A stretch of 64,000 bases of DNA, from NCBI RefSeq assembly GCF_054482525.1, contig NZ_CM137006.1; one strand, written 5' to 3'. The position numbers and the translations under genes were made by a program. Shown here piece after piece: positions 2,180-31,131 of this stretch. Numbering within the stretch: the first letter of the stretch is position 1; every line of letters begins with the position of its first letter. Under the pieces are notes generated by a model. It saw only the letters and a list, made by a program, of their open reading frames with translations. It was not told the DNA's origin and searched no databases.

Positions 2180-2244
2180 TGATCTTACCCAGCAATAGTG
2201 GACACGCGGCTAAGTGAGTAAACTCTCAGTCAGAGGTGACTCAC

Positions 2245-2544
2245 ATGACAAAAACAGTATCAACCAGTAAAAAACCCCGTAAACAGCATTCGCCTGAATT
2301 TCGCAGTGAAGCCCTGAAGCTTGCTGAACGCATCGGTGTTACTGCCGCAGCCCGTGAACTCAGCCTGTATGAATCACAACTCTACAACTGGCGCAGTAAA
2401 CAGCAAAATCAGCAGACGTCTTCTGAACGTGAACTGGAGATGTCTACCGAGATTGCACGTCTCAAACGCCAGCTGGCAGAACGGGATGAAGAGCTGGCTA
2501 TCCTCCAAAAGGCCGCGACATACTTCGCGAAGCGCCTGAAATGA
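2245..2544 (+). CDS. insE: IS3 transposase OrfA (InsE-like, 99 aa)
   Basis: [31 protein letters not shown]... helix-turn-helix/leucine-zipper OrfA of IS3; the provided ORF starts 3 codons upstream. Confidence 0.92.
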
Positions 2545-3407
2545 AGTATGTCTTTATTGAAAAACATCAGGCTGAGTTCAGCATCAAAGCAATGTGCCGC
2601 GTGCTCCGGGTGGCCCGCAGCGGCTGGTATACGTGGTGTCAGCGGCGGACAAGGATAAGCACGCGTCAGCAGTTCCGCCAACACTGCGACAGCGTTGTCC
2701 TCGCGGCTTTTACCCGGTCAAAACAGCGTTACGGTGCCCCACGCCTGACGGATGAACTGCGTGCTCAGGGTTACCCCTTTAACGTAAAAACCGTGGCGGC
2801 AAGCCTGCGCCGTCAGGGACTGAGGGCAAAGGCCTCCCGGAAGTTCAGCCCGGTCAGCTACCGCGCACACGGCCTGCCTGTGTCAGAAAATCTGTTGGAG
2901 CAGGATTTTTACGCCAGTGGCCCGAACCAGAAGTGGGCAGGAGACATCACGTACTTACGTACAGATGAAGGCTGGCTGTATCTGGCAGTGGTCATTGACC
3001 TGTGGTCACGTGCCGTTATTGGCTGGTCAATGTCGCCACGCATGACGGCGCAACTGGCCTGCGATGCCCTGCAGATGGCGCTGTGGCGGCGTAAGAGGCC
3101 CCGGAACGTTATCGTTCACACGGACCGTGGAGGCCAGTACTGTTCAGCAGATTATCAGGCGCAACTGAAGCGGCATAATCTGCGTGGAAGTATGAGCGCA
3201 AAAGGTTGCTGCTACGATAATGCCTGCGTGGAAAGCTTCTTTCATTCGCTGAAAGTGGAATGTATCCATGGAGAACACTTTATCAGCCGGGAAATAATGC
3301 GGGCAACGGTGTTTAATTATATCGAATGTGATTACAATCGGTGGCGGCGGCACAGTTGGTGTGGCGGCCTCAGTCCGGAACAATTTGAAAACAAGAACCT
3401 CGCTTAG
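2541..3407 (+). CDS. insF: IS3 transposase OrfB (InsF-like, 288 aa, DDE integrase domain)
   Basis: 288-aa ORF overlapping orfA by ATGA; contains HTDRGGQY...[14 protein letters not shown]-type motifs; expected to be expressed as an OrfAB fusion by -1 frameshift. Confidence 0.92.
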
Positions 3408-3440
3408 GCCTGTGTCCATATTACGTGGGTAGGATCAAGC

Positions 3441-3541
3441 TTGAGGTGCTGGCGCGTGGGGCAACGGTAAGCTATTGTGGGGAAAAATTTACGTATCCGG
3501 TCGCTGATGAGGGGGCGGGATTTGTAGTATGTAAATGGTGA
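3441..3541 (+). pseudogene. A: Displaced 3' remnant of gene A (last ~34 codons) downstream of IS3
   Basis: Joining 2179 to 3441 (removing IS3 and one TSD copy) continues the A frame as LEVLARGATVSYCGEKFTYPVADEGAGFVVCKW-stop at 3539-3541, giving ~760 aa, the expected gpA length. Confidence 0.6.
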
Positions 3542-3791
3542 AGGTAAGATGGGTTTTTGTCTGTAACGCATTGTTTTATATGGTTATATTTGATTTTTTG
3601 TAACGTGTGTTCATGTTTTCTTTGCTATGATTCATACTACTGCTATAGATGGCTAAAGATATAGGTTGTTGCTTAAATGTATATAGATAATTAAACGCCT
3701 TAATTTTTGATGAGATGTGTCATAAAGTGGAGTCTGTATGGCATAATTTTATGGGGCATGACATTTATACCATTCTTAAAAAGGAGATTAT

Positions 3792-5459
3792 ATGCTGATA
3801 ACTTTCTCAGGACAAAATTATAAGGCATACGAGAGTTTTAAGTTGTCTTTAAAGCCATTGACAATATTATTAGGGGCAAATAGTTGTGGGAAAAGTGCAT
3901 TAATTAACTCTTTGTTGATGTTTTCTCAGTCTGTTGATTCAATGTCATTGTCTGATTCTGCTTTAAGGTTGAATGGGCCTAAAGTTGGGATGGGAGAAGC
4001 ATTAAATATAATAAAAAATAAAGATGACTCCAAAACACTTAGTTTTAGTTTTGATTTTTCTGATAATACAGTGGTTAAAAATGGCATTGATACACTGAGG
4101 AGAGAAACTTTAGAATCATTTGCTATGATTATGCGATTCACAGTGCAAACGGTGAAAAATAATGACGCTTTGGTTACGAAAGCCAATGATTTAATAAATG
4201 AGGCTTCGAATGCGATCGTTAACTTTGACGAATTTGAGGAAGCTGAGTTAAAGGTTATCGCTGATAAGTTATGTCAATTACTTTTGCTTTTTAGGGAGGC
4301 GGGTGATAATGTCACATTTAGTCGTGCGACCTCAGAAAATTTACGCAAATTTATATATGAATGTCCATTAAAGAGAATAAAGGATTGTCTAACTAAAGTT
4401 ATTTCCATTTCAGGAAATAAATTGTCGGCTTCTAAGATAAGCTATGATTTCAAATATGATAAAAATAAAGGGGTGATAAAAGTTTCGAGGCTTGTTCTTT
4501 TAAATAAGAATGATGAAAAGATAGTTGAGCTATTACCAAAGAAGAATAATGTCGTTGTATTATCAGATGTTATCCCTCAAGAAGTGTTTAGAGGATGTCA
4601 GTCAGATATCTTAGAAATCATCAATCCTTATTCGCTGGGGCTGTTCCCTGTCAATAATGGGCGTGGTTTTTATGTTTTTTTTGGTAACTCTTATAATCCT
4701 GTTGTTAATTTTTTATCACATGTTGTTTCTTTGGGTGTATTAATGCTTTCAAAAATGTTTGATGGTGAAAATGTTAATCACGTCAGCCCATTGAGAGCAT
4801 TTCCTCAGCGATATTATCTATTAGACAAAACAGTCAATCATGCGCAGTTAAATTCTGCCGATGGATCTGAGTTAGCGGAGATCTTGAAGAAAAATACAAA
4901 AATAACAGAAAATATAAATCTTCTTCTGGCTGAATTTAATTTGGCTGTTGATATAGTTAAAGTTAATGACATAATTCATAAAATTGTTATAAACCAAGAT
5001 GCTGTTAATTTAGAGTTGACAGATGTGGGGTTTGGAATATCACAAGTATTGCCTGTCTTGGTTCAAGCTTATTTGTCACCAAAGGGTTCGATTACAATAA
5101 TAGAACAACCAGAAATACATTTGCATCCTAAAATGCAGGCATGGTTAACGGACGCATTAATTAAAATATCTATGCAAGAAAAGAAAGTATTTATTATTGA
5201 AACCCATAGCGATGCTTTAGTTAGACGAATTAGATTAAGAATTGTTGATGAATCGAGTGAACTTACAGAGGATCATGTTGCAATCTACCATCTTGAGCGC
5301 GATGAAGAGGGAACATCAACATTGCTGAATAGGGTGGCTGTAAATTCTGATGGAGATATCACATGGCCAAATGAATTTATGGATGTTGAGATTCAGGATA
5401 CAATTAGAATACAGGAGTTAAAGATACAGAAAATAATGAACTCAAAGGGGGTTCATTGA
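3792..5459 (+). CDS. ABC-type (AAA_15/AAA_21-like) ATPase, 555 aa; first gene of cargo operon in the P2 A-cos accessory slot; candidate defence-system ATPase
   Basis: Walker A GANSCGKS at aa 28-35 (nt 3873-3896); Walker B/D-loop ITIIEQPEIHLHP at aa 434-446 (nt 5091-5129); H-loop IIETHS; ~400-aa insert between Walker A and B; AAGGAG RBS 6 nt upstream; AT-rich codon usage unlike flanking phage genes. Confidence 0.75.
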   Translation: MLITFSGQNYKAYESFKLSLKPLTILLGANSCGKSALINSLLMFSQSVDSMSLSDSALRLNGPKVGMGEALNIIKNKDDSKTLSFSFDFSDNTVVKNGIDTLRRETLESFAMIMRFTVQTVKNNDALVTKANDLINEASNAIVNFDEFEEAELKVIADKLCQLLLLFREAGDNVTFSRATSENLRKFIYECPLKRIKDCLTKVISISGNKLSASKISYDFKYDKNKGVIKVSRLVLLNKNDEKIVELLPKKNNVVVLSDVIPQEVFRGCQSDILEIINPYSLGLFPVNNGRGFYVFFGNSYNPVVNFLSHVVSLGVLMLSKMFDGENVNHVSPLRAFPQRYYLLDKTVNHAQLNSADGSELAEILKKNTKITENINLLLAEFNLAVDIVKVNDIIHKIVINQDAVNLELTDVGFGISQVLPVLVQAYLSPKGSITIIEQPEIHLHPKMQAWLTDALIKISMQEKKVFIIETHSDALVRRIRLRIVDESSELTEDHVAIYHLERDEEGTSTLLNRVAVNSDGDITWPNEFMDVEIQDTIRIQELKIQKIMNSKGVH

Positions 5460-5460
5460 C

Positions 5461-6462
5461 ATGTATTGTGCAGTGTGTTTGTGTCCTGATTTTGTTGCGG
5501 CTAATATTTCTGATATTAATTTATTTAGTGGTTTTTTTATTGGAACCATTGTTAATGGTGAAAATCAGTTGATTTTAGATGCTGATGAAAAAATCCGTTT
5601 GGGCTATTTGAAATCTTGTAAAAATAACAAGGATTCTTTTTATCTGCTTCAGAAATGGGAGGCTGAATTATCTAAAGCTTCTTCAGGTAAAATATTGCTT
5701 GCACCAGTGAGTAATAGTACTGATGATATTAAGGATATAGTTGTTTGTGCAGTTGCTAACGCAGCTACCACCTTTGATAAACATATTGTGGTATTAGACA
5801 ATAATAGTTACTCTGGATATGTTGATGAATTAATTAGGCAAAGAGTTAATTTGTTAAATCTTAATAGTATAAGTTTAATATCAAAGGAGGATAGGGTGCA
5901 GCGTCCTTTGAATTTTATAAAGTTTGATAGCGATTTGTCTTGGGTGCTTCAAAGACTGGGGCGACGCTCTGCTAAAGGATATGGCGAAGATGATTTTAAT
6001 GATTTTATACGAGATATGTTATTAGCTAAAAATTATGAGGTAAAAGATCAAACTCGAGAAGGAGAGTCTCAATCGGGGAAAAAAGCCGGTGAGTTAGATC
6101 TTGTTATTGAAGATAGAGGAGAACTGTTTGCTATAATAGAAGCCTTGATTTTAAACTCTTTAGATCAAGCTAACATATTAAAGCATTATTCAAAGTTAAT
6201 TGATAACTATAATCCTATTCATGTCAAAAGGTTGTTTTTAATTGCTTATTATACAGGTGCAAAATTCGATGCCTGGTGTGAAAGATATATTGAGTATCTA
6301 AAGGGGATTACTTCGGTAGATATTGGTGTGGAATCTCATCAGATAGTTGAGGTTAAAGAAGTGGATACCCCGTACATAGGCTTAAGAAAAATTGAACATC
6401 ATTTTAGATATGCGGGGGAGCACTATTTTTGTATCCATTATGCAGTCAAAATGGCTCGGTGA
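5461..6462 (+). CDS. Hypothetical protein, 333 aa; partner of the ABC ATPase (translationally coupled); candidate effector of unknown fold
   Basis: ATG 1 nt after the ATPase stop (TGA-c-ATG); AT-rich; Cys cluster CAVCLC at N-terminus; acidic stretch GELDLVIEDRGELFAIIEAL; no motif I can assign confidently. Confidence 0.65.
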   Translation: MYCAVCLCPDFVAANISDINLFSGFFIGTIVNGENQLILDADEKIRLGYLKSCKNNKDSFYLLQKWEAELSKASSGKILLAPVSNSTDDIKDIVVCAVANAATTFDKHIVVLDNNSYSGYVDELIRQRVNLLNLNSISLISKEDRVQRPLNFIKFDSDLSWVLQRLGRRSAKGYGEDDFNDFIRDMLLAKNYEVKDQTREGESQSGKKAGELDLVIEDRGELFAIIEALILNSLDQANILKHYSKLIDNYNPIHVKRLFLIAYYTGAKFDAWCERYIEYLKGITSVDIGVESHQIVEVKEVDTPYIGLRKIEHHFRYAGEHYFCIHYAVKMAR

Positions 6463-6473
6463 TGTTTAAGATG

Positions 6474-6499
6474 AATGCACCTATAGGGTGCATCATTTT
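6474..6499 (+). terminator. Putative intrinsic terminator of the cargo operon
   Basis: Short hairpin tgcacc-tata-gggtgca followed by tcatttt immediately after the second cargo gene. Confidence 0.35.
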
Positions 6500-6599
6500 G
6501 CATGTTTAAATATGTTCTCTATGTATGTGCGCTAGGCTTGACTGGCGCGCTTATACTGTGTTTACGCAACTGCATTAAAACTGACCCATGAAGCGGGCG

Positions 6600-6618
6600 G
6601 GCGAGGCGGGGAAAGCAC
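6600..6618. other. cos: P2 cos site (19-nt cohesive-end sequence)
   Basis: GGCGAGGCGGGGAAAGCAC matches the P2 cohesive end as I recall it, located between the accessory slot and the portal gene Q as in P2. Confidence 0.8.
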
Positions 6619-6787
6619 TGCGCGCTGGCGGTGGTGCTGATTTTATTTTTTCAGCGTCTGAGCGCGTCGTGATGGCGTTTGGATTGTTCGCCGGGGCGTT
6701 GGTGTGTATGCGGGCTGTTTTGTGCGGTGGTGAGCGTGTGAGGGCGTGATGACGGGGTGTAAAAAAGCCGCCCGCAGGCGGCGATGT

Positions 6788-18801: not shown

Positions 18802-19405
18802 TTCGCGACTGCTGCCGACCGGCTCATCGCCGCTTGAAGTCGCCGCCGCAAAAGCCTGTGCGGAAATTGAAAAAACGCCGGTCAGTATTCGTGAGCTGTG
18901 GAACCCGGATACCTGTCCGGCAAATCTGCTGCCGTGGCTGGCGTGGTCATTTTCGGTTGACCGCTGGGATGATAAGTGGCCGGAAGCGACAAAACGCGCT
19001 GTTATCCGCGATGCGTATTTCATTCACTGCCATAAGGGCACTATAGGCGCAATCCGGCGTGTGGTGGAGCCGCTCGGCTATCTGATTGAGGTGAGGGAGT
19101 GGTGGCAGCTCAACGAGGAGCCGGGGACGTTCCGCATCGTTGTTGGCGTGCTTGAGCAGGGTATTACCGAGGAAATGTATCAGGAGCTGGAGCGCCTCGT
19201 TGCTGATGCAAAACCGGCAAGCCGCCATCTGACGGGACTGGCTATCAGTTTAAGTACAACCGGCAACATTTTTGCCAGTGCGGGATGCTATCACGGTGAC
19301 GCCCTGACGGTTTATCCCTACACCCCGGAGGCCATTATTGTCGGAGGGGATTATTTCCCGGCCTCGGCCATTCATTTAATTGATAACCTGAGAGTAAACG
19401 CATGA
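18794..19405 (+). CDS. I: P2-like baseplate protein gpI
   Basis: ORF overlapping J end and H start; exact start codon uncertain. Confidence 0.8.
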   Translation: MSDSRLLPTGSSPLEVAAAKACAEIEKTPVSIRELWNPDTCPANLLPWLAWSFSVDRWDDKWPEATKRAVIRDAYFIHCHKGTIGAIRRVVEPLGYLIEVREWWQLNEEPGTFRIVVGVLEQGITEEMYQELERLVADAKPASRHLTGLAISLSTTGNIFASAGCYHGDALTVYPYTPEAIIVGGDYFPASAIHLIDNLRVNA

Positions 19406-20700
19406 CAGTGAAATACTACGCCATTCTGACTAATCAGGGCGCAGCACGGCTGGCTAACGCGACGATGCTCGGCAGTAAGCTGAATCTGACGCAAATGGCC
19501 GTTGGTGATGCGAATGGTGTCTTGCCGACACCAGACCCGGCACAGACAAAACTGATTAATCAGAAACGCATCGCGCCGCTGAATCTTCTGAGTGTTGACC
19601 CGAACAACCAGAGCCAGATTATTGCGGAGCAAATCATCCCTGAGAACGAGGGCGGATTCTGGATCCGTGAGATTGGGCTTTATGATGATGAAGGCGTACT
19701 CATTGCGGTGGCGAACTGCCCGGAAACGTACAAACCGCAGTTACAGGAAGGCAGCGGTCGTACCCAGACTATCCGCATGATTCTGGTTGTCACGAATACC
19801 GAAGCCATCACGCTGAAAATCGACCCGTCGGTGGTACTGGCGACCCGTAAATACGTGGATGATAAAGTCCTGGAATTAAAGCTGTATGTGGATGACCAGA
19901 TGAGAAACCACATTGCCGCACAGGATCCTCATACCCAGTATGCACAGAAACATAATCCGACATTTACCGGAGAACCAAAAGCGCCGACGCCTGCCGCAGG
20001 AAATAACACCACGCGGATTGCGACCACTGCGTTTGTACAGGCCGCTATTACCGCTCTGATTAACGGTGCCCCTGACACGCTGGACACACTGAAAGAAATT
20101 GCCGCAGCTATCAACAATGACCCGAAATTCAGCACCACCATTAACAATGCGCTGTCAGGTAAGCAGCCACTGGATGAGACGCTGACTCATTTGAGTGGAA
20201 AGGATGTTGCCGGTCTTCTCGCATACCTTGGTTTGGGAGAAGGCTCTGCATTGCCGGTTGGTGTGCCTGTTCCGTGGCCTTCAGCCACTCCGCCAACGGG
20301 GTGGCTAAAATGTAACGGAGCAGTATTTTCTTCTGAAAAGTACCCAAATCTGGCAAAGGCTTACCCAACATTAAAATTACCAGATTTACGCGGTGAATTT
20401 ATTCGTGGCTGGGATGATGGGCGCGGGATTGACTCTGGTCGTAACTTATTATCTGCACAGAATGATGCAATTCAGAATATTGTTGGTTCTTTTGGGCGTA
20501 CCCAGCTTTTTAGAGACGTACTTAGTTCAGGGCCATTTAGTCAACATGGGCAAGTATTATCTACAGGTCTAAAGGAAGCCGAAATTATTGAGGGTTATGG
20601 CGCTTATAACTGGACATTCGACGCATCTCGCTCAGTTCGCACAGCATCTGAAACCCGCTCCCGTAACATCGCCTTTAATTATATTGTGAGGGCTGCATGA
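19402..20700 (+). CDS. H: Tail fibre protein gpH (432 aa): P2-like constant N-terminus fused to the currently expressed variable C-terminal cassette
   Basis: N-terminus MTVKYYAILTNQGAARLANA...; C-terminal region (WPSATPPTGWLKCNGAVFSSEKYPNLAKAY...LPDLRGEFIRGW) is tail-collar-like; inversion crossover site lies at codons ~276-280. Confidence 0.88.
   Translation: MTVKYYAILTNQGAARLANATMLGSKLNLTQMAVGDANGVLPTPDPAQTKLINQKRIAPLNLLSVDPNNQSQIIAEQIIPENEGGFWIREIGLYDDEGVLIAVANCPETYKPQLQEGSGRTQTIRMILVVTNTEAITLKIDPSVVLATRKYVDDKVLELKLYVDDQMRNHIAAQDPHTQYAQKHNPTFTGEPKAPTPAAGNNTTRIATTAFVQAAITALINGAPDTLDTLKEIAAAINNDPKFSTTINNALSGKQPLDETLTHLSGKDVAGLLAYLGLGEGSALPVGVPVPWPSATPPTGWLKCNGAVFSSEKYPNLAKAYPTLKLPDLRGEFIRGWDDGRGIDSGRNLLSAQNDAIQNIVGSFGRTQLFRDVLSSGPFSQHGQVLSTGLKEAEIIEGYGAYNWTFDASRSVRTASETRSRNIAFNYIVRAA
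20228..20242. repeat. Left inversion crossover site of tail-fibre segment (inside H)
   Basis: TTGGTTTGGGAGAAG; perfect inverted copy at 22160-22174; weak resemblance to gix/hix half-sites. Confidence 0.6.
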
Positions 20701-21302
20701 TAAGTAAAGCTGTATTAAATAATGAACTCATCGCCACAAAGGCCGGAGACATTACCGTTTATAATTATGATGGTGAAACACGGGAATATATTTCCACATC
20801 AACTGAATATCTTGCTGTGGGTGTCGGTATCCCGGCATGTTCCTGTTTAGATGCTCCTGGCTCATATAAAGCTGGTTATGCAATTTGCCGTTCTGCAGAT
20901 TTTAACTCATGGGAATATGTGCCAGACCATCGCGGTGAAATCGTCTATAGCACCGAAACAGGAGAATCAAAAGAAATCACAGTTCCGGGTGATTACCCTG
21001 AAAATACAACCACTATCGCCCCGTTAACGTCATACGATAAATGGGATGGTGAGAAATGGGTGACCGATACTGAGGCACAGCATAACGCCGCAGTAGACGC
21101 GGCAGAAGTACGGCGCCAGTCACTGATTGATGCTGCTATGGCTTCCATTAGTCTGATTCAGCTGAAATTGCAGGCCGGGCGGAAGCTGACGCAGGCAGAA
21201 ACAACCCGGCTTAACGCTGTGCTGGATTACATTGACGCGGTGACTGCAACAGATACCAGCACCGCGCCGGATGTCATCTGGCCTGAACTACCGGAGGCGT
21301 AG
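20697..21302 (+). CDS. G: Tail fibre assembly chaperone gpG (Tfa), currently expressed orientation
   Basis: 201-aa ORF directly after H; C-terminal ...TATDTSTAPDVIWPELPEA typical of Tfa proteins. Confidence 0.85.
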   Translation: MISKAVLNNELIATKAGDITVYNYDGETREYISTSTEYLAVGVGIPACSCLDAPGSYKAGYAICRSADFNSWEYVPDHRGEIVYSTETGESKEITVPGDYPENTTTIAPLTSYDKWDGEKWVTDTEAQHNAAVDAAEVRRQSLIDAAMASISLIQLKLQAGRKLTQAETTRLNAVLDYIDAVTATDTSTAPDVIWPELPEA

Positions 21303-21717
21303 GCCATTCAATATCTGGAGCACTGGCGGTATCAACCAGTTCCAGTGCGTCCAGATAATCCAGCCATAAATTATATTGTTCCAGCTCGTAACCTTTCAGA
21401 CGACCAATAGCAGCTTTGCCAGGCCACTGATGGGTATTGATGTAGGTATTGACTTCTGAAACCAAAGATATCTTTTTCATTTCAGCCGCCAGCATCTCAT
21501 CCTCTTTTGAAGGCGGCGGGGAATTAATCCATATTGGCCGTCCTGAACTGTCAGCGCCAATTTCTTTCCCTTCTGGATGCAGCCCAAGAAATTGCTCATA
21601 TGTTTCTCTGGTAATTTCAATAACATCATCAGGAAGCGTTCCCGCATCCTCATATTCTGGAAACAATTCTTGCAGATAAAAACTTTTACTTGCGGGTGAA
21701 AAGAATACTGAGTTCAT
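21274..21717 (-). CDS. Alternative tail fibre assembly chaperone (Tfa') for the inverted orientation
   Basis: 147-aa reverse-strand ORF; C-terminus ...DTASAPDIEWPTPPVVQAR parallels gpG; convergent with G and overlapping its 3' end. Confidence 0.75.
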   Translation of the reverse strand: MNSVFFSPASKSFYLQELFPEYEDAGTLPDDVIEITRETYEQFLGLHPEGKEIGADSSGRPIWINSPPPSKEDEMLAAEMKKISLVSEVNTYINTHQWPGKAAIGRLKGYELEQYNLWLDYLDALELVDTASAPDIEWPTPPVVQAR

Positions 21718-21719
21718 TC

Positions 21720-22159
21720 TTACCGTCCAATGATTAACGCTGAGACGCTGGTATCTGAAGGAAAGGCTGCATTCAGTGGTTTGTCGACTTTGAACACAAT
21801 CGTATTATTCCCCCTGACAGCGGCAAAAGAACAAACCGCCGTCGCGTATGAACCTGTAATATTACTGGATACACCACCATAAGCTGTTGTTGATACCAGA
21901 GGGATAACGCCCAGCACCTTATTAGGAAATACAAAGGGCAATGTGGCTGTGGCAATATAAGACTTATTAGAACCTGTAATGGCATAAGCATTATCAGTCA
22001 TTCCATTCATCGCCACTGGACCGCTTATACTTACAGTAACCATCTGAATGATTAGCCCGTCAGGTTGACGAATCACAAAATTTCCATTGCCACCAGTAAC
22101 CGTCCAGAAAGACATATCAGGGATTTGGTTTTCCCCGTTGCCCACATTTCGTTTTGCCG
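21720..22159 (-). CDS. Alternative (currently silent) tail-fibre C-terminal cassette, promoterless, expressed only after inversion
   Basis: Reverse-strand reading frame continuous from the right crossover site; shares the GLGE junction frame with H; no independent start expected. Confidence 0.65.
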
Positions 22160-22174
22160 CTTCTCCCAAACCAA
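22160..22174. repeat. Right inversion crossover site of tail-fibre segment
   Basis: CTTCTCCCAAACCAA, exact reverse complement of 20228-20242. Confidence 0.6.
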
Positions 22175-22241
22175 CGTTTAAGAAAATGCAGAGATTACGG
22201 CTAACTGGCATCATCCCCGGTTTTTATTCAGGGGATCCATC

Positions 22242-22835
22242 ATGCTTATTGGCTATGTCCGCGTGTCAACAAATGACCAGAATACGGAATTGCAGCGTAA
22301 CGCGCTGGAGTGTGCAGGATGTGAGCTTATTTTTGAGGATAAAATCAGCGGCACGAAGTCCGACCGACCGGGACTGAAAAAACTGCTCAGGACATTATCG
22401 GAGGGGGATACACTGGTGGTCTGGAAGCTGGACCGGCTGGGGCGTAGTATGCGGCATCTGGTCATTCTGGTTGAGGAACTGCGCGAACGCGGCGTTAATT
22501 TTCGCAGCCTGACGGATGCTATTGATACCAGCACGCCGATGGGGCGTTTTTTCTTTCATGTGATGGGTGCCCTGGCTGAAATGGAGCGAGAACTCATTGT
22601 CGAGAGGACACGCGCCGGACTGGAAGCGGCCAGAGCCAAAGGTCGTATTGGTGGCAGACGACCGAAACTCACCGCGAGTGAGTGGGAGCAGGCCGGGCGT
22701 TTGCTGGCTGCAGGGGAGTCACGTCAACGCGTGGCACTGATTTTTGATATTGGTCTGTCCACGCTCTATAAAAAATTTCCCTCATCAGCGACAAAGAATA
22801 AATTGTGTCATCCCTTAGCCAACCGGGACAAATAG
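22242..22835 (+). CDS. Serine recombinase, DNA invertase of the Pin/Gin/Hin/Cin family (197 aa)
   Basis: N-terminal catalytic domain MLIGYVRVSTNDQNTELQRNAL (active-site Ser in YVRVST), C-terminal HTH; positioned just outside the right crossover site. Confidence 0.9.
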   Translation: MLIGYVRVSTNDQNTELQRNALECAGCELIFEDKISGTKSDRPGLKKLLRTLSEGDTLVVWKLDRLGRSMRHLVILVEELRERGVNFRSLTDAIDTSTPMGRFFFHVMGALAEMERELIVERTRAGLEAARAKGRIGGRRPKLTASEWEQAGRLLAAGESRQRVALIFDIGLSTLYKKFPSSATKNKLCHPLANRDK

Positions 22836-22894: not shown

Positions 22895-24085
22895 ATGAGT
22901 GACTATCATCACGGCGTGCAGGTGCTGGAGATTAACGACGGCACCCGCGTCATTTCCACCGTATCCACTGCCATTGTCGGCATGGTCTGCACGGCCAGCG
23001 ATGCGGATGCGGAAACCTTCCCCCTCAATAAACCTGTGCTGATTACCAATGTGCAGAGCGCAATTGCAAAGGCCGGTAAAAAAGGCACGCTGGCGGCATC
23101 GTTGCAGGCCATCGCTGACCAGTCAAAACCGGTCACCGTTGTCGTGCGCGTGGAAGACGGCACTGGTGATGACGAGGAAACGAAACTCGCGCAGACCGTT
23201 TCCAATATCATCGGCACCACCGACGAAAACGGTCAGTACACCGGACTGAAAGCCCTGCTGGCGGCGGAGTCGGTAACCGGTGTTAAACCGCGTATTCTCG
23301 GTGTGCCGGGACTGGATACCAAAGAGGTGGCTGTTGCACTGGCATCCGTCTGTCAGAAGCTGCGCGCTTTCGGATATATCAGCGCGTGGGGCTGTAAGAC
23401 TATTTCCGAGGTGAAAGCCTACCGCCAGAATTTCAGCCAGCGTGAGCTGATGGTCATCTGGCCGGATTTCCTCGTATGGGATACGGTCACCAGTACCACC
23501 GCCACCGCGTATGCCACCGCCCGTGCACTGGGGCTGCGTGCCAAAATCGACCAGGAGCAGGGCTGGCATAAAACGCTGTCCAATGTCGGGGTGAACGGTG
23601 TTACCGGCATCAGCGCATCTGTATTCTGGGATTTGCAGGAGTCCGGCACCGATGCTGACCTGCTTAACGAGTCAGGTGTCACTACGCTGATTCGCCGCGA
23701 CGGTTTCCGCTTCTGGGGTAACCGTACCTGCTCTGATGACCCGCTGTTCCTCTTTGAAAACTACACCCGCACCGCGCAGGTGCTGGCCGACACGATGGCT
23801 GAGGCGCACATGTGGGCGGTGGACAAGCCCATCACCGCAACGCTGATTCGCGACATCGTTGACGGCATCAATGCCAAATTCCGTGAGCTGAAAACAAACG
23901 GCTATATCGTGGATGCGACCTGCTGGTTCAGCGAAGAATCCAACGATGCGGAAACCCTCAAGGCCGGAAAACTGTATATCGACTACGACTATACACCGGT
24001 GCCTCCTCTTGAAAACCTGACCCTGCGCCAGCGTATTACCGATAAATACCTGGCAAATCTGGTCACCTCGGTTAACAGCAATTAA
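22895..24085 (+). CDS. FI: P2-like contractile tail sheath protein gpFI (396 aa)
   Basis: 396-aa ORF MSDYHHGVQVLEINDGTRVIS...; P2 size and order. Confidence 0.93.
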   Translation: MSDYHHGVQVLEINDGTRVISTVSTAIVGMVCTASDADAETFPLNKPVLITNVQSAIAKAGKKGTLAASLQAIADQSKPVTVVVRVEDGTGDDEETKLAQTVSNIIGTTDENGQYTGLKALLAAESVTGVKPRILGVPGLDTKEVAVALASVCQKLRAFGYISAWGCKTISEVKAYRQNFSQRELMVIWPDFLVWDTVTSTTATAYATARALGLRAKIDQEQGWHKTLSNVGVNGVTGISASVFWDLQESGTDADLLNESGVTTLIRRDGFRFWGNRTCSDDPLFLFENYTRTAQVLADTMAEAHMWAVDKPITATLIRDIVDGINAKFRELKTNGYIVDATCWFSEESNDAETLKAGKLYIDYDYTPVPPLENLTLRQRITDKYLANLVTSVNSN

Positions 24086-29769: not shown

Positions 29770-31131
29770 TCACTTACCGTGGGGGTTACGCGTGGTTTCC
29801 CCGGAGAAATTACGCATCAGGAGCGCGTAATTTAGCTCAAGATCCTGCGGCACCGGGATCCACACAGTATAACCATCGCCTGGTGCGACCGGCATAGCTT
29901 CACCTTTGGTGTTTTCCATGTGCTCAAGGGTAAAGTTAATGTTCCCTTGCGGCGTCATCAGCTCAAGGCTGTCGCCAACGGAGAATTTATTTTTCACCGC
30001 TACCGCCGCGAGGTCGCCCTTGCGCTCACCGGTAAACTCACCAACAAACTGCTGGCGGTCAGAAACTGAATAACCGTATTCGTAGTTCTGATAATCGTCG
30101 TGAGTATGACGACGCAGGAAACCTTCGGTATAGCCACGATGCGCCAGACCTTCCAGGGTTTCCAGCAGGCTGGTATCGAACGGTTTGCCCGCAGCGGCGT
30201 CATCGATAGCTTTACGATAAACCTGTGCGGTGCGTGCGCAATAGTAGAAAGATTTGGTACGGCCTTCGATTTTCAGCGAATGCACGCCCATTTTGGTCAG
30301 GCGTTCTACATGGGCGATGGCGCGCAGATCTTTCGAGTTCATGATGTAAGTGCCGTGCTCATCTTCAAACGCGGTCATATACTCGCCCGGACGCTGGGCT
30401 TCTTCGATCATAAACACTTTGTCAGTTGGTGCGCCGATACCCAGCGTCGGCTCAACATTTTGCACCGGAATCGGCTCGTACTTGTGTACGATGTTGCCAA
30501 CGTCATCTTCTTTCCCTTCCTGGACGTTGTACTCCCAGCGGCAGGCGTTGGTGCAGGTGCCCTGGTTCGGGTCGCGCTTGTTGATATAGCCAGAGAGCAG
30601 GCAGCGACCGGAGTAGGCCATGCACAGCGCGCCGTGAACGAAGATCTCGATCTCCATATCCGGCACCTGATTACGAATCTCTTCAATCTCTTCCAGCGAC
30701 AGCTCGCGAGAGAGGATCACGCGGGTCAGTCCCATTTGCTGCCAGAATTTCACCGTCGCCCAGTTCACGGCGTTAGCCTGCACCGAGAGGTGGATCGGCA
30801 CTTCAGGGAAGTGCTCACGCACCAGCATAATCAGCCCTGGATCAGACATAATCAGCGCATCCGGCCCCATTTCCACCACCGGTTTCAGGTCACGGATAAA
30901 GGTTTTCAGCTTGGCGTTGTGCGGTGCAATGTTGACCACGACATAAAACTTTTTCCCCAGCGCATGGGCTTCATTAATGCCGAGCTGAAGATTTTCGTGG
31001 TTGAATTCGTTGTTGCGCACACGCAGGGAGTAACGCGGCTGGCCCGCATAAACAGCATCTGCGCCATAAGCGAAAGCGTAACGCATATTTTTCAGCGTTC
31101 CCGCCGGGGAAAGGAGTTCCGGTTTAAACAT
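29770..31131 (-). CDS. yegQ: U32-family peptidase-like protein YegQ (453 aa)
   Basis: 453-aa ORF with U32 family features; conserved neighbour of yegP/baeR. Confidence 0.95.
   Translation of the reverse strand: MFKPELLSPAGTLKNMRYAFAYGADAVYAGQPRYSLRVRNNEFNHENLQLGINEAHALGKKFYVVVNIAPHNAKLKTFIRDLKPVVEMGPDALIMSDPGLIMLVREHFPEVPIHLSVQANAVNWATVKFWQQMGLTRVILSRELSLEEIEEIRNQVPDMEIEIFVHGALCMAYSGRCLLSGYINKRDPNQGTCTNACRWEYNVQEGKEDDVGNIVHKYEPIPVQNVEPTLGIGAPTDKVFMIEEAQRPGEYMTAFEDEHGTYIMNSKDLRAIAHVERLTKMGVHSLKIEGRTKSFYYCARTAQVYRKAIDDAAAGKPFDTSLLETLEGLAHRGYTEGFLRRHTHDDYQNYEYGYSVSDRQQFVGEFTGERKGDLAAVAVKNKFSVGDSLELMTPQGNINFTLEHMENTKGEAMPVAPGDGYTVWIPVPQDLELNYALLMRNFSGETTRNPHGK

Follow-up and report, generated by a model that had tools for sequence, protein, structure and literature searches.

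A Gin-family DNA invertase gene and its predicted tail-fibre switch in the Z/fun slot of a P2-like prophage

Introduction

The closest described relatives of the locus reported here are the invertible tail-fibre segments of phages Mu and P1, of e14 in Escherichia coli K-12 and of Fels-2 in Salmonella LT2, together with the fun(Z) gene of phage P2, whose place in the genome the locus takes. In the Gin/G segment of Mu and the Cin/C segment of P1, a fibre tip is switched together with a chaperone, the crossover sites are 26 bp long and the recombinational enhancer lies in the 5' coding region of the invertase gene (annotated for cin); the structure of Gin has been solved. The locus analysed here, part of a P2-like prophage in a 64-kb stretch of DNA (the window), shares the switching logic and the 26-bp sites, has a predicted enhancer in the corresponding place and encodes an invertase with 77% protein identity to Mu Gin and 78% to P1 Cin. 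It differs from both systems in phage family, core dinucleotides and fibre modules, and from P1 also in the position of the invertase gene, cin being placed upstream of cixL, at the opposite side of the segment.

With the e14 PinE/P segment, the window shares an invertase that is 85% identical, a right crossover site that is identical at 25 of 26 positions and the order of fibre tip, chaperone, second chaperone and second tip, with the invertase beyond the right site; in both loci the convergent chaperone genes overlap by 29 nt. The tip and chaperone currently expressed in the window are 84–89% identical to the stfE/tfaE region of e14, where they lie in the opposite orientation. Unlike e14, however, the window element is a P2-like myovirus whose fibre constant part is a P2-type gpH, its second tip differs from the second tip of e14, and its invertase ORF extends 13 codons further in the 3' direction, running into the P2 pF activator site. 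Fels-2 (STM2702; Felsduovirus) is, like the window element, a member of the Peduoviridae, and has the order H, G, G', H', invertase and FI as well as an invertase protein 85% identical to that of the window. In contrast to this agreement in layout, the backbone DNA is only about 67–69% identical, the crossover core of Fels-2 is TC/GA where that of the window is TT/AA, and the fibre segments are different, the alternative H' of Fels-2 being annotated as a probable pseudogene.

In P2 itself, H and G are annotated first, followed by a terminator, the minus-strand gene fun(Z), the pF activator site and FI. The window invertase occupies the same slot between G and the pF promoter, with the same right border at the pF activator site, but is unrelated in sequence and function to Fun(Z), the product of a lysogenic-conversion/T5-exclusion gene on the opposite strand. 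Anti-phage defence cargo is the usual content of the Z/fun slot. A DNA invertase has also often been seen in this hotspot, along with inversion of adjacent genes (10.1101/2024.10.15.618418), and inversion in P2-like prophages has been measured experimentally in EPEC E2348/69 (PMC4272514).

The invertase gene and its product

The gene at the centre of the locus is the following.

22242–22835, + strand: serine DNA invertase gene of the Gin/Cin/Pin/Hin subfamily, 197 aa (ORF, Pfam, structure match, alignment)

A first-pass annotation of the window had named this gene a Pin/Gin/Hin/Cin-type serine invertase, and both its intactness and its family are confirmed. The ORF runs from ATG to TAG without interruption over 197 codons and encodes a Resolvase N-terminal domain at residues 3–135 (Pfam, E=2e-52) followed by an HTH_7 domain at residues 138–181 (Pfam, E=1.1e-12). 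The closest solved structure is that of phage Mu Gin (3uj3/4m6f; E=1.6e-94 over residues 1–182), and Hin's DNA-binding domain (1hcr) matches residues 139–188 with E=1.1e-8. Protein identities, which range from 77 to 85%, and residue checks were taken from a five-way alignment of the window protein with Mu Gin, P1 Cin, e14 PinE and the Fels-2 invertase. In this alignment the YVRVST motif with catalytic Ser9 (Gin numbering, which is Hin numbering minus 1) is invariant, and the catalytic serine and the helix-turn-helix DNA-binding domain are both intact.

The pair of Resolvase and HTH_7 domains is common to the gamma-delta and Tn3 resolvases as well, and on that ground the protein could be taken for a resolvase, a serine recombinase of transposon type or a serine integrase, with no part in tail-fibre switching. 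This reading is refuted by the scores, the gamma-delta and Tn3 resolvase structures matching far more weakly (E=1e-27 to 1e-33 versus 1e-94 for Gin), by the presence of invertase-specific residues and by the layout of the sites, a pair of inverted 26-mers on either side of alternative fibre exons; nor is there a transposase or res site nearby. It is accordingly given next to no weight.

The residues associated with Fis are also in place. In Hin, K47, K/R48 and K/R51 together with Q151, R154 and L155 contact Fis and the enhancer and are uniquely conserved in Fis-dependent invertases (PMC3798978); the window protein has K46, K47 and R50 as well as Q150, R153 and L154 as their counterparts. Hyperactive, Fis-independent mutants have been found at or near the positions of His106 and Met114, for example Hin H107Y (PMC3798978). 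Ser9, His106 and Met114 of the window protein are the wild-type Gin residues, whereas in the solved Gin chains position 114 is Val (3uj3 and 4m6f) and Ser9 is replaced by Ala (3uj3). Given these Fis-contact residues and the wild-type His106 and Met114, the invertase is expected, from its sequence, to depend on Fis. At the DNA level the gene is 100% identical to a copy in NZ_CP053787 (RefSeq product WP_000905100.1), and several genomes encode an identical protein.

Between the right crossover site and the invertase ATG, a sigma-70 promoter scan gave nothing convincing, and a terminator scan around the gene returned weak terminator-like matches only, inside coding sequence. An RNA hairpin at 22187–22262 that would occlude the ribosome-binding site was considered and dropped, its folding being no better than that of shuffled sequence (z = -1.19). 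The interval between the right site and the invertase start also holds a motif, ATGGCAT (window 22203–22214), that is kept in Mu, e14, Fels-2 and the window. It may be read as an invertase promoter element or as the start of the silent fibre tip described below, as on the minus strand it gives an ATG that extends the silent tip ORF past the segment boundary and that is annotated by gene callers.

Crossover sites and the two states of the segment

Two crossover sites flank the segment next to the invertase gene.

20216–20241, + strand: left crossover site, TTCTCGCATACC TT GGTTTGGGAGAA (inverted repeat, 12-2-12 layout)
22161–22186, + strand: right crossover site, TTCTCCCAAACC AA CGTTTAAGAAAA (opposite in orientation to the left site; the minus strand reads TT at the core)

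Read on the other strand, the right site is TTTTCTTAAACG TT GGTTTGGGAGAA, and the two 26-bp sites thus have identical TT cores in inverted orientation. They coincide with the best inverted repeat in the region, 20216–20242 / 22160–22186, and their 12-2-12 layout is common to the Mu gix and e14 sites. The left site is the only match to the symmetrised site with at most 3 mismatches in the 64-kb window, where 0 are expected by chance, and the same search pattern, run on the comparison loci, recovers the Mu gix pair and the pairs of e14, Fels-2 and others. A third crossover site, as in shufflon-type multi-inversion, was sought in the 64-kb window, and only the pair was present. With the right site at 22161–22186, the invertase gene starts 55 bp outside it, counted to the ATG, and its placement directly outside the right crossover site in the first-pass annotation is borne out.

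The constant part of the fibre gene and the segment between the sites comprise the following features.

19402–20229, + strand: constant N-terminal part of tail fibre gene H, 276 codons, common to both states (Pfam Phage_tail_fib, 1.5e-62)
20230–20700, + strand: variable C-terminus of H expressed in the present orientation, with collar domain and tip (Pfam Collar, 6.4e-15)
20697–21302, + strand: tail fibre assembly chaperone, G/TfaE-like, paired with the current tip (Pfam Caudo_TAP, 6e-32)
21274–21717, - strand: alternative tail fibre assembly chaperone, silent in the present orientation (Pfam Caudo_TAP, 2.8e-26)
21720–22172, - strand: alternative fibre C-terminus, 150 codons, silent in the present orientation (in-frame flip)

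In the present orientation, H is an ORF of 432 aa (19402–20700) encoding a P2-type gpH, and its constant part, with the frame checked, extends to the left crossover site's core. The alternative tip gives a weak match to Gp53-like_C (5.2e-5, 24.1 bits, just below the Pfam curated cut-off of 24.9), and its ORF stretches mechanically to 22214 (21720–22214), the extension lying outside the segment. When 20230–22172 is flipped in silico, H codon 276 joins the 150-codon alternative tip in frame to give a protein of 426 aa, and the second chaperone then has its ATG 2 nt past the stop codon of this alternative H, so that either state of the switch is coding-competent.

A predicted enhancer within the invertase gene

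The first-pass annotation had also expected a Fis-dependent enhancer in the 5' coding region, as is usual for this family, and a candidate is found there.

22260–22331, + strand: predicted recombinational enhancer, gene nt 19–90 (P1 cin enhancer homology, synonymous constraint)

The P1 record annotates the Cin inversion enhancer at cin nt 19–90, and this stretch is homologous to the 5' region of the window gene. Constraint on synonymous codons was measured on nine invertase genes, namely those of the window, gin, cin, pin, Fels-2, Phi06, mEp237 and Aeromonas phage 3 and the Hin-like invertase gene of Klebsiella phage KP12, which served as a proxy for Hin DNA; the first 135 codons of all nine align without indels, and identities were computed among the seven closer genes. 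Synonymous-codon identity is 0.81 over codons 8–13 and 0.71 over codons 24–29, compared with 0.36 over the intervening codons 14–23 and 0.38 over codons 31–135, and the four highest of 32 sliding windows of 8 codons are those over the blocks at codons 8–13 and 24–29. Homology to the cin enhancer and the two-peaked constraint together point to an enhancer at this position.

Within it, a proximal Fis site is predicted at gene nt 23–37 (window 22264–22278, TGTCAACAAATGACC) and a distal one at gene nt 71–85 (window 22312–22326, GTGCAGGATGTGAGC), with their centres 48 bp apart. The two Fis sites of the Hin enhancer are likewise spaced by 48 bp. Against the degenerate Fis consensus GNNYRNNWNNYRNNC, the distal block has no mismatch and the proximal block 1; as this consensus is not enriched in the window, with 101 matches versus 144 expected, it was not used as evidence on its own. 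The centre of the predicted proximal site lies about 97 bp from the centre of the right crossover site, and the native spacing between hix1 and the enhancer is 99 bp (PMC3798978).

Natural copies in both orientations

When the predicted flipped right junction was used as a query, full-length matches were found in E. coli genomes. In NZ_CM169472 and NZ_CP149815 (loci L008 and L009), window positions 20225–21322 are present in reverse, at 99.4% identity, and abut 22160 onward, the overlap at the flipped junction being the 18 bp common to both crossover sites. Natural copies in both orientations break exactly at the crossover sites. The invertase of L008 is WP_000905100.1, the accession also found in NZ_CP053787, and that of L009 is WP_000905106.1, a close variant. 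The two loci are not exact mirror images of the window because of an IS21 insertion in the segment: an IS21-family element (istA/istB) lies in the far-end chaperone gene of both flipped copies, at 172–2479 in L008 and 156–2458 in L009. The two elements belong to different families, ISSso4 and ISEc12.

Cassette damage in relatives, which includes these IS21 insertions and a frameshift in the chaperone of NZ_CP053787, would fit a decayed or silent invertase carried as a passenger next to a frozen segment, with the alternative tip and chaperone as relics, and the lack of a clear promoter upstream of the invertase points the same way. Such decay is nonetheless very improbable for the window, where the ORF is complete, no catalytic or Fis-contact residue is missing and both alternative sets of fibre and chaperone ORFs are intact and in frame. 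It also sits badly with the occurrence in nature of the same invertase protein beside both orientations, and with its recurrence in identical form in several genomes. An active switch is thus the preferred reading, and inversion of the segment would presumably depend on this particular invertase gene.

Distribution of the layout and other resident invertases

An 801-bp query comprising the alternative tip, the invertase and the pF junction was covered to at least 80% in 480 of 5426 complete E. coli genomes. Annotations of Fels-2 (STM2702) and of a P2-like phage of O157:H43 strain T22 show this gene order too, and pro483, S164, 500465-2 and Salmonella phage MET_P1_103_31 match the layout. In view of Fels-2, the T22 phage, the 480 genomes and the preprint cited in the Introduction, the finding of an invertase in the Z/fun slot is correct but already known.

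The Gin, Cin, Pin and Hin invertases cross-complement, and another resident invertase could for this reason act on the sites. At least one homologous invertase locus was present in 3179 of the 5426 E. coli genomes, with up to 8 in some, and the right site of the window differs from the e14 site at 1 of 26 positions only; both observations are compatible with inversion being catalysed mainly in trans, for example by e14 Pin, with the window gene redundant. This arrangement is considered a very unlikely one. The predicted enhancer lies in cis, inside this invertase gene, the gene has been kept beside the segment in about 480 genomes, and no second invertase site or gene was seen in the 64-kb window; redundancy would, moreover, leave this gene functional. 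The preferred reading remains that the window invertase acts on the segment next to it.

Position of the invertase in the P2 backbone

The right border of the slot is defined by two features.

about 22798–22826, + strand: equivalent of the P2 pF activator (Ogr) binding site (P2 annotation transferred through alignment)
22895–24085, + strand: tail sheath gene FI, right border of the slot (Pfam Phage_sheath_1, 8.2e-34; 97.8% identical to P2 FI)

High-identity homology to P2 (97.8%) starts at window position 22815, inside the equivalent of the pF activator site, of which the outer parts TTGTG and TTAGCCAACCGG are retained and the 7 bp between them differ from P2. With the invertase stop at 22833–22835, the last dozen codons of the gene overlap the activator site, and this overlap accounts for the non-conserved C-terminal tail of the protein, by which it is 13 residues longer than PinE. 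The predicted pF transcription start follows about 35 bp downstream of the stop. Between the invertase stop and FI there remain just 59 bp, taken up by the pF promoter, which leaves no room there for another cargo gene, and no further ORF fits between the two genes.

The first-pass annotation had placed the invertase in the P2 Z/fun position between G and FI, and the resumption of P2 homology at 22815, in the pF site, upholds this. Its picture of the slot needs refinement, however, in that the G–FI interval also contains the alternative assembly gene (21274–21717, - strand) and the alternative fibre C-terminus (21720–22172, - strand), so that Z/fun is replaced by the silent half of the cassette together with the invertase (21303–22835).

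Exchange of the segment between prophages

Window positions 20225–22180 are 99.8% identical (4 mismatches) to a segment in an e14/Mu-tail-like prophage of NZ_CP098211 (locus L016), and this identity is lost within about 7 bp of each crossover centre, the left side being without any flanking homology. The NZ_CP098211 prophage has a different fibre constant part, and its pinE gene is only 78–95% identical. Conversely, NZ_CP132983 has the same P2 backbone and an identical invertase protein but a different segment, with homology to the window breaking at 20242 and 22160. The pattern suggests that cassettes have been exchanged at the crossover sites. Cassette exchange made by the invertase was reportedly put forward in the early 1990s for the Min and Cin inversion systems. 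That the invertible segment of the window is a portable cassette, moved between unrelated prophages by the invertases themselves, is a tentative proposal and somewhat doubtful on balance.

In L016 (10102–14556), an Avs2 (AVAST type 2) defence gene follows the invertase, and the tail module there ends in an invertase with defence cargo next to it.

Other features of the window

The old/tin hotspot, at window 2218–6787 between gpA and the portal gene, contains an IS3-family transposase ORF (2541–3407, rve domains) and a two-gene candidate defence module. The latter consists of an AAA_15 ATPase (3792–5459; PADLOC NsnB 1.9e-52, AriA 1.2e-27) and a 333-aa protein (5461–6462) for which neither Pfam nor PADLOC gave a match. 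Just past the right end of the prophage lies a peptidase U32 gene (29770–31131), which we take to resemble yegQ, the site being presumably the locH-type P2 attachment region of E. coli. The ORFs that follow fit the baeSR-mdtABCD cluster in size and order, the peptidase being the only one of these genes that was scanned.

The proposed switch and its meaning

The ORF at 22242–22835 is, with a probability of about 0.9, a functional Fis- and enhancer-dependent serine DNA invertase of the Gin/Cin/Pin/Hin type belonging to the P2-like prophage. Dimers of the invertase would bind the inverted 26-bp sites at 20216–20241 and 22161–22186, and Fis bound to the two-site enhancer in the first 90 bp of the gene would join them in an invertasome on supercoiled DNA, which would then invert the segment of about 1.95 kb between the sites. 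Inversion would swap the C-terminal 156 residues of gpH and the chaperone for the 150-residue tip and the second chaperone, and the virions from a population of lysogens would thereby come in two receptor specificities. Fis dependence, the catalytic role of this very protein and the effect on host range are parts of the scheme that we infer.

Beyond correct annotation, the finding is of little importance. In RefSeq the invertase gene is listed as 'recombinase family protein', the alternative tip as 'hypothetical protein', and the right label for the locus would be a tail-fibre phase-variation switch, made up of an invertase, two sites, an enhancer and two pairs of tip and chaperone. For the mining of the Z/fun slot for defence genes, it means that roughly 9% of complete E. 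coli genomes have host-range machinery there instead. The identity to an unrelated prophage that is bounded by the crossover sites offers a clean natural example of fibre-cassette exchange, usable to study the movement of modules, and if such swaps were made by rare intermolecular action of the invertase, as opposed to homologous recombination, cassette exchange would be a second role of the crossover sites.
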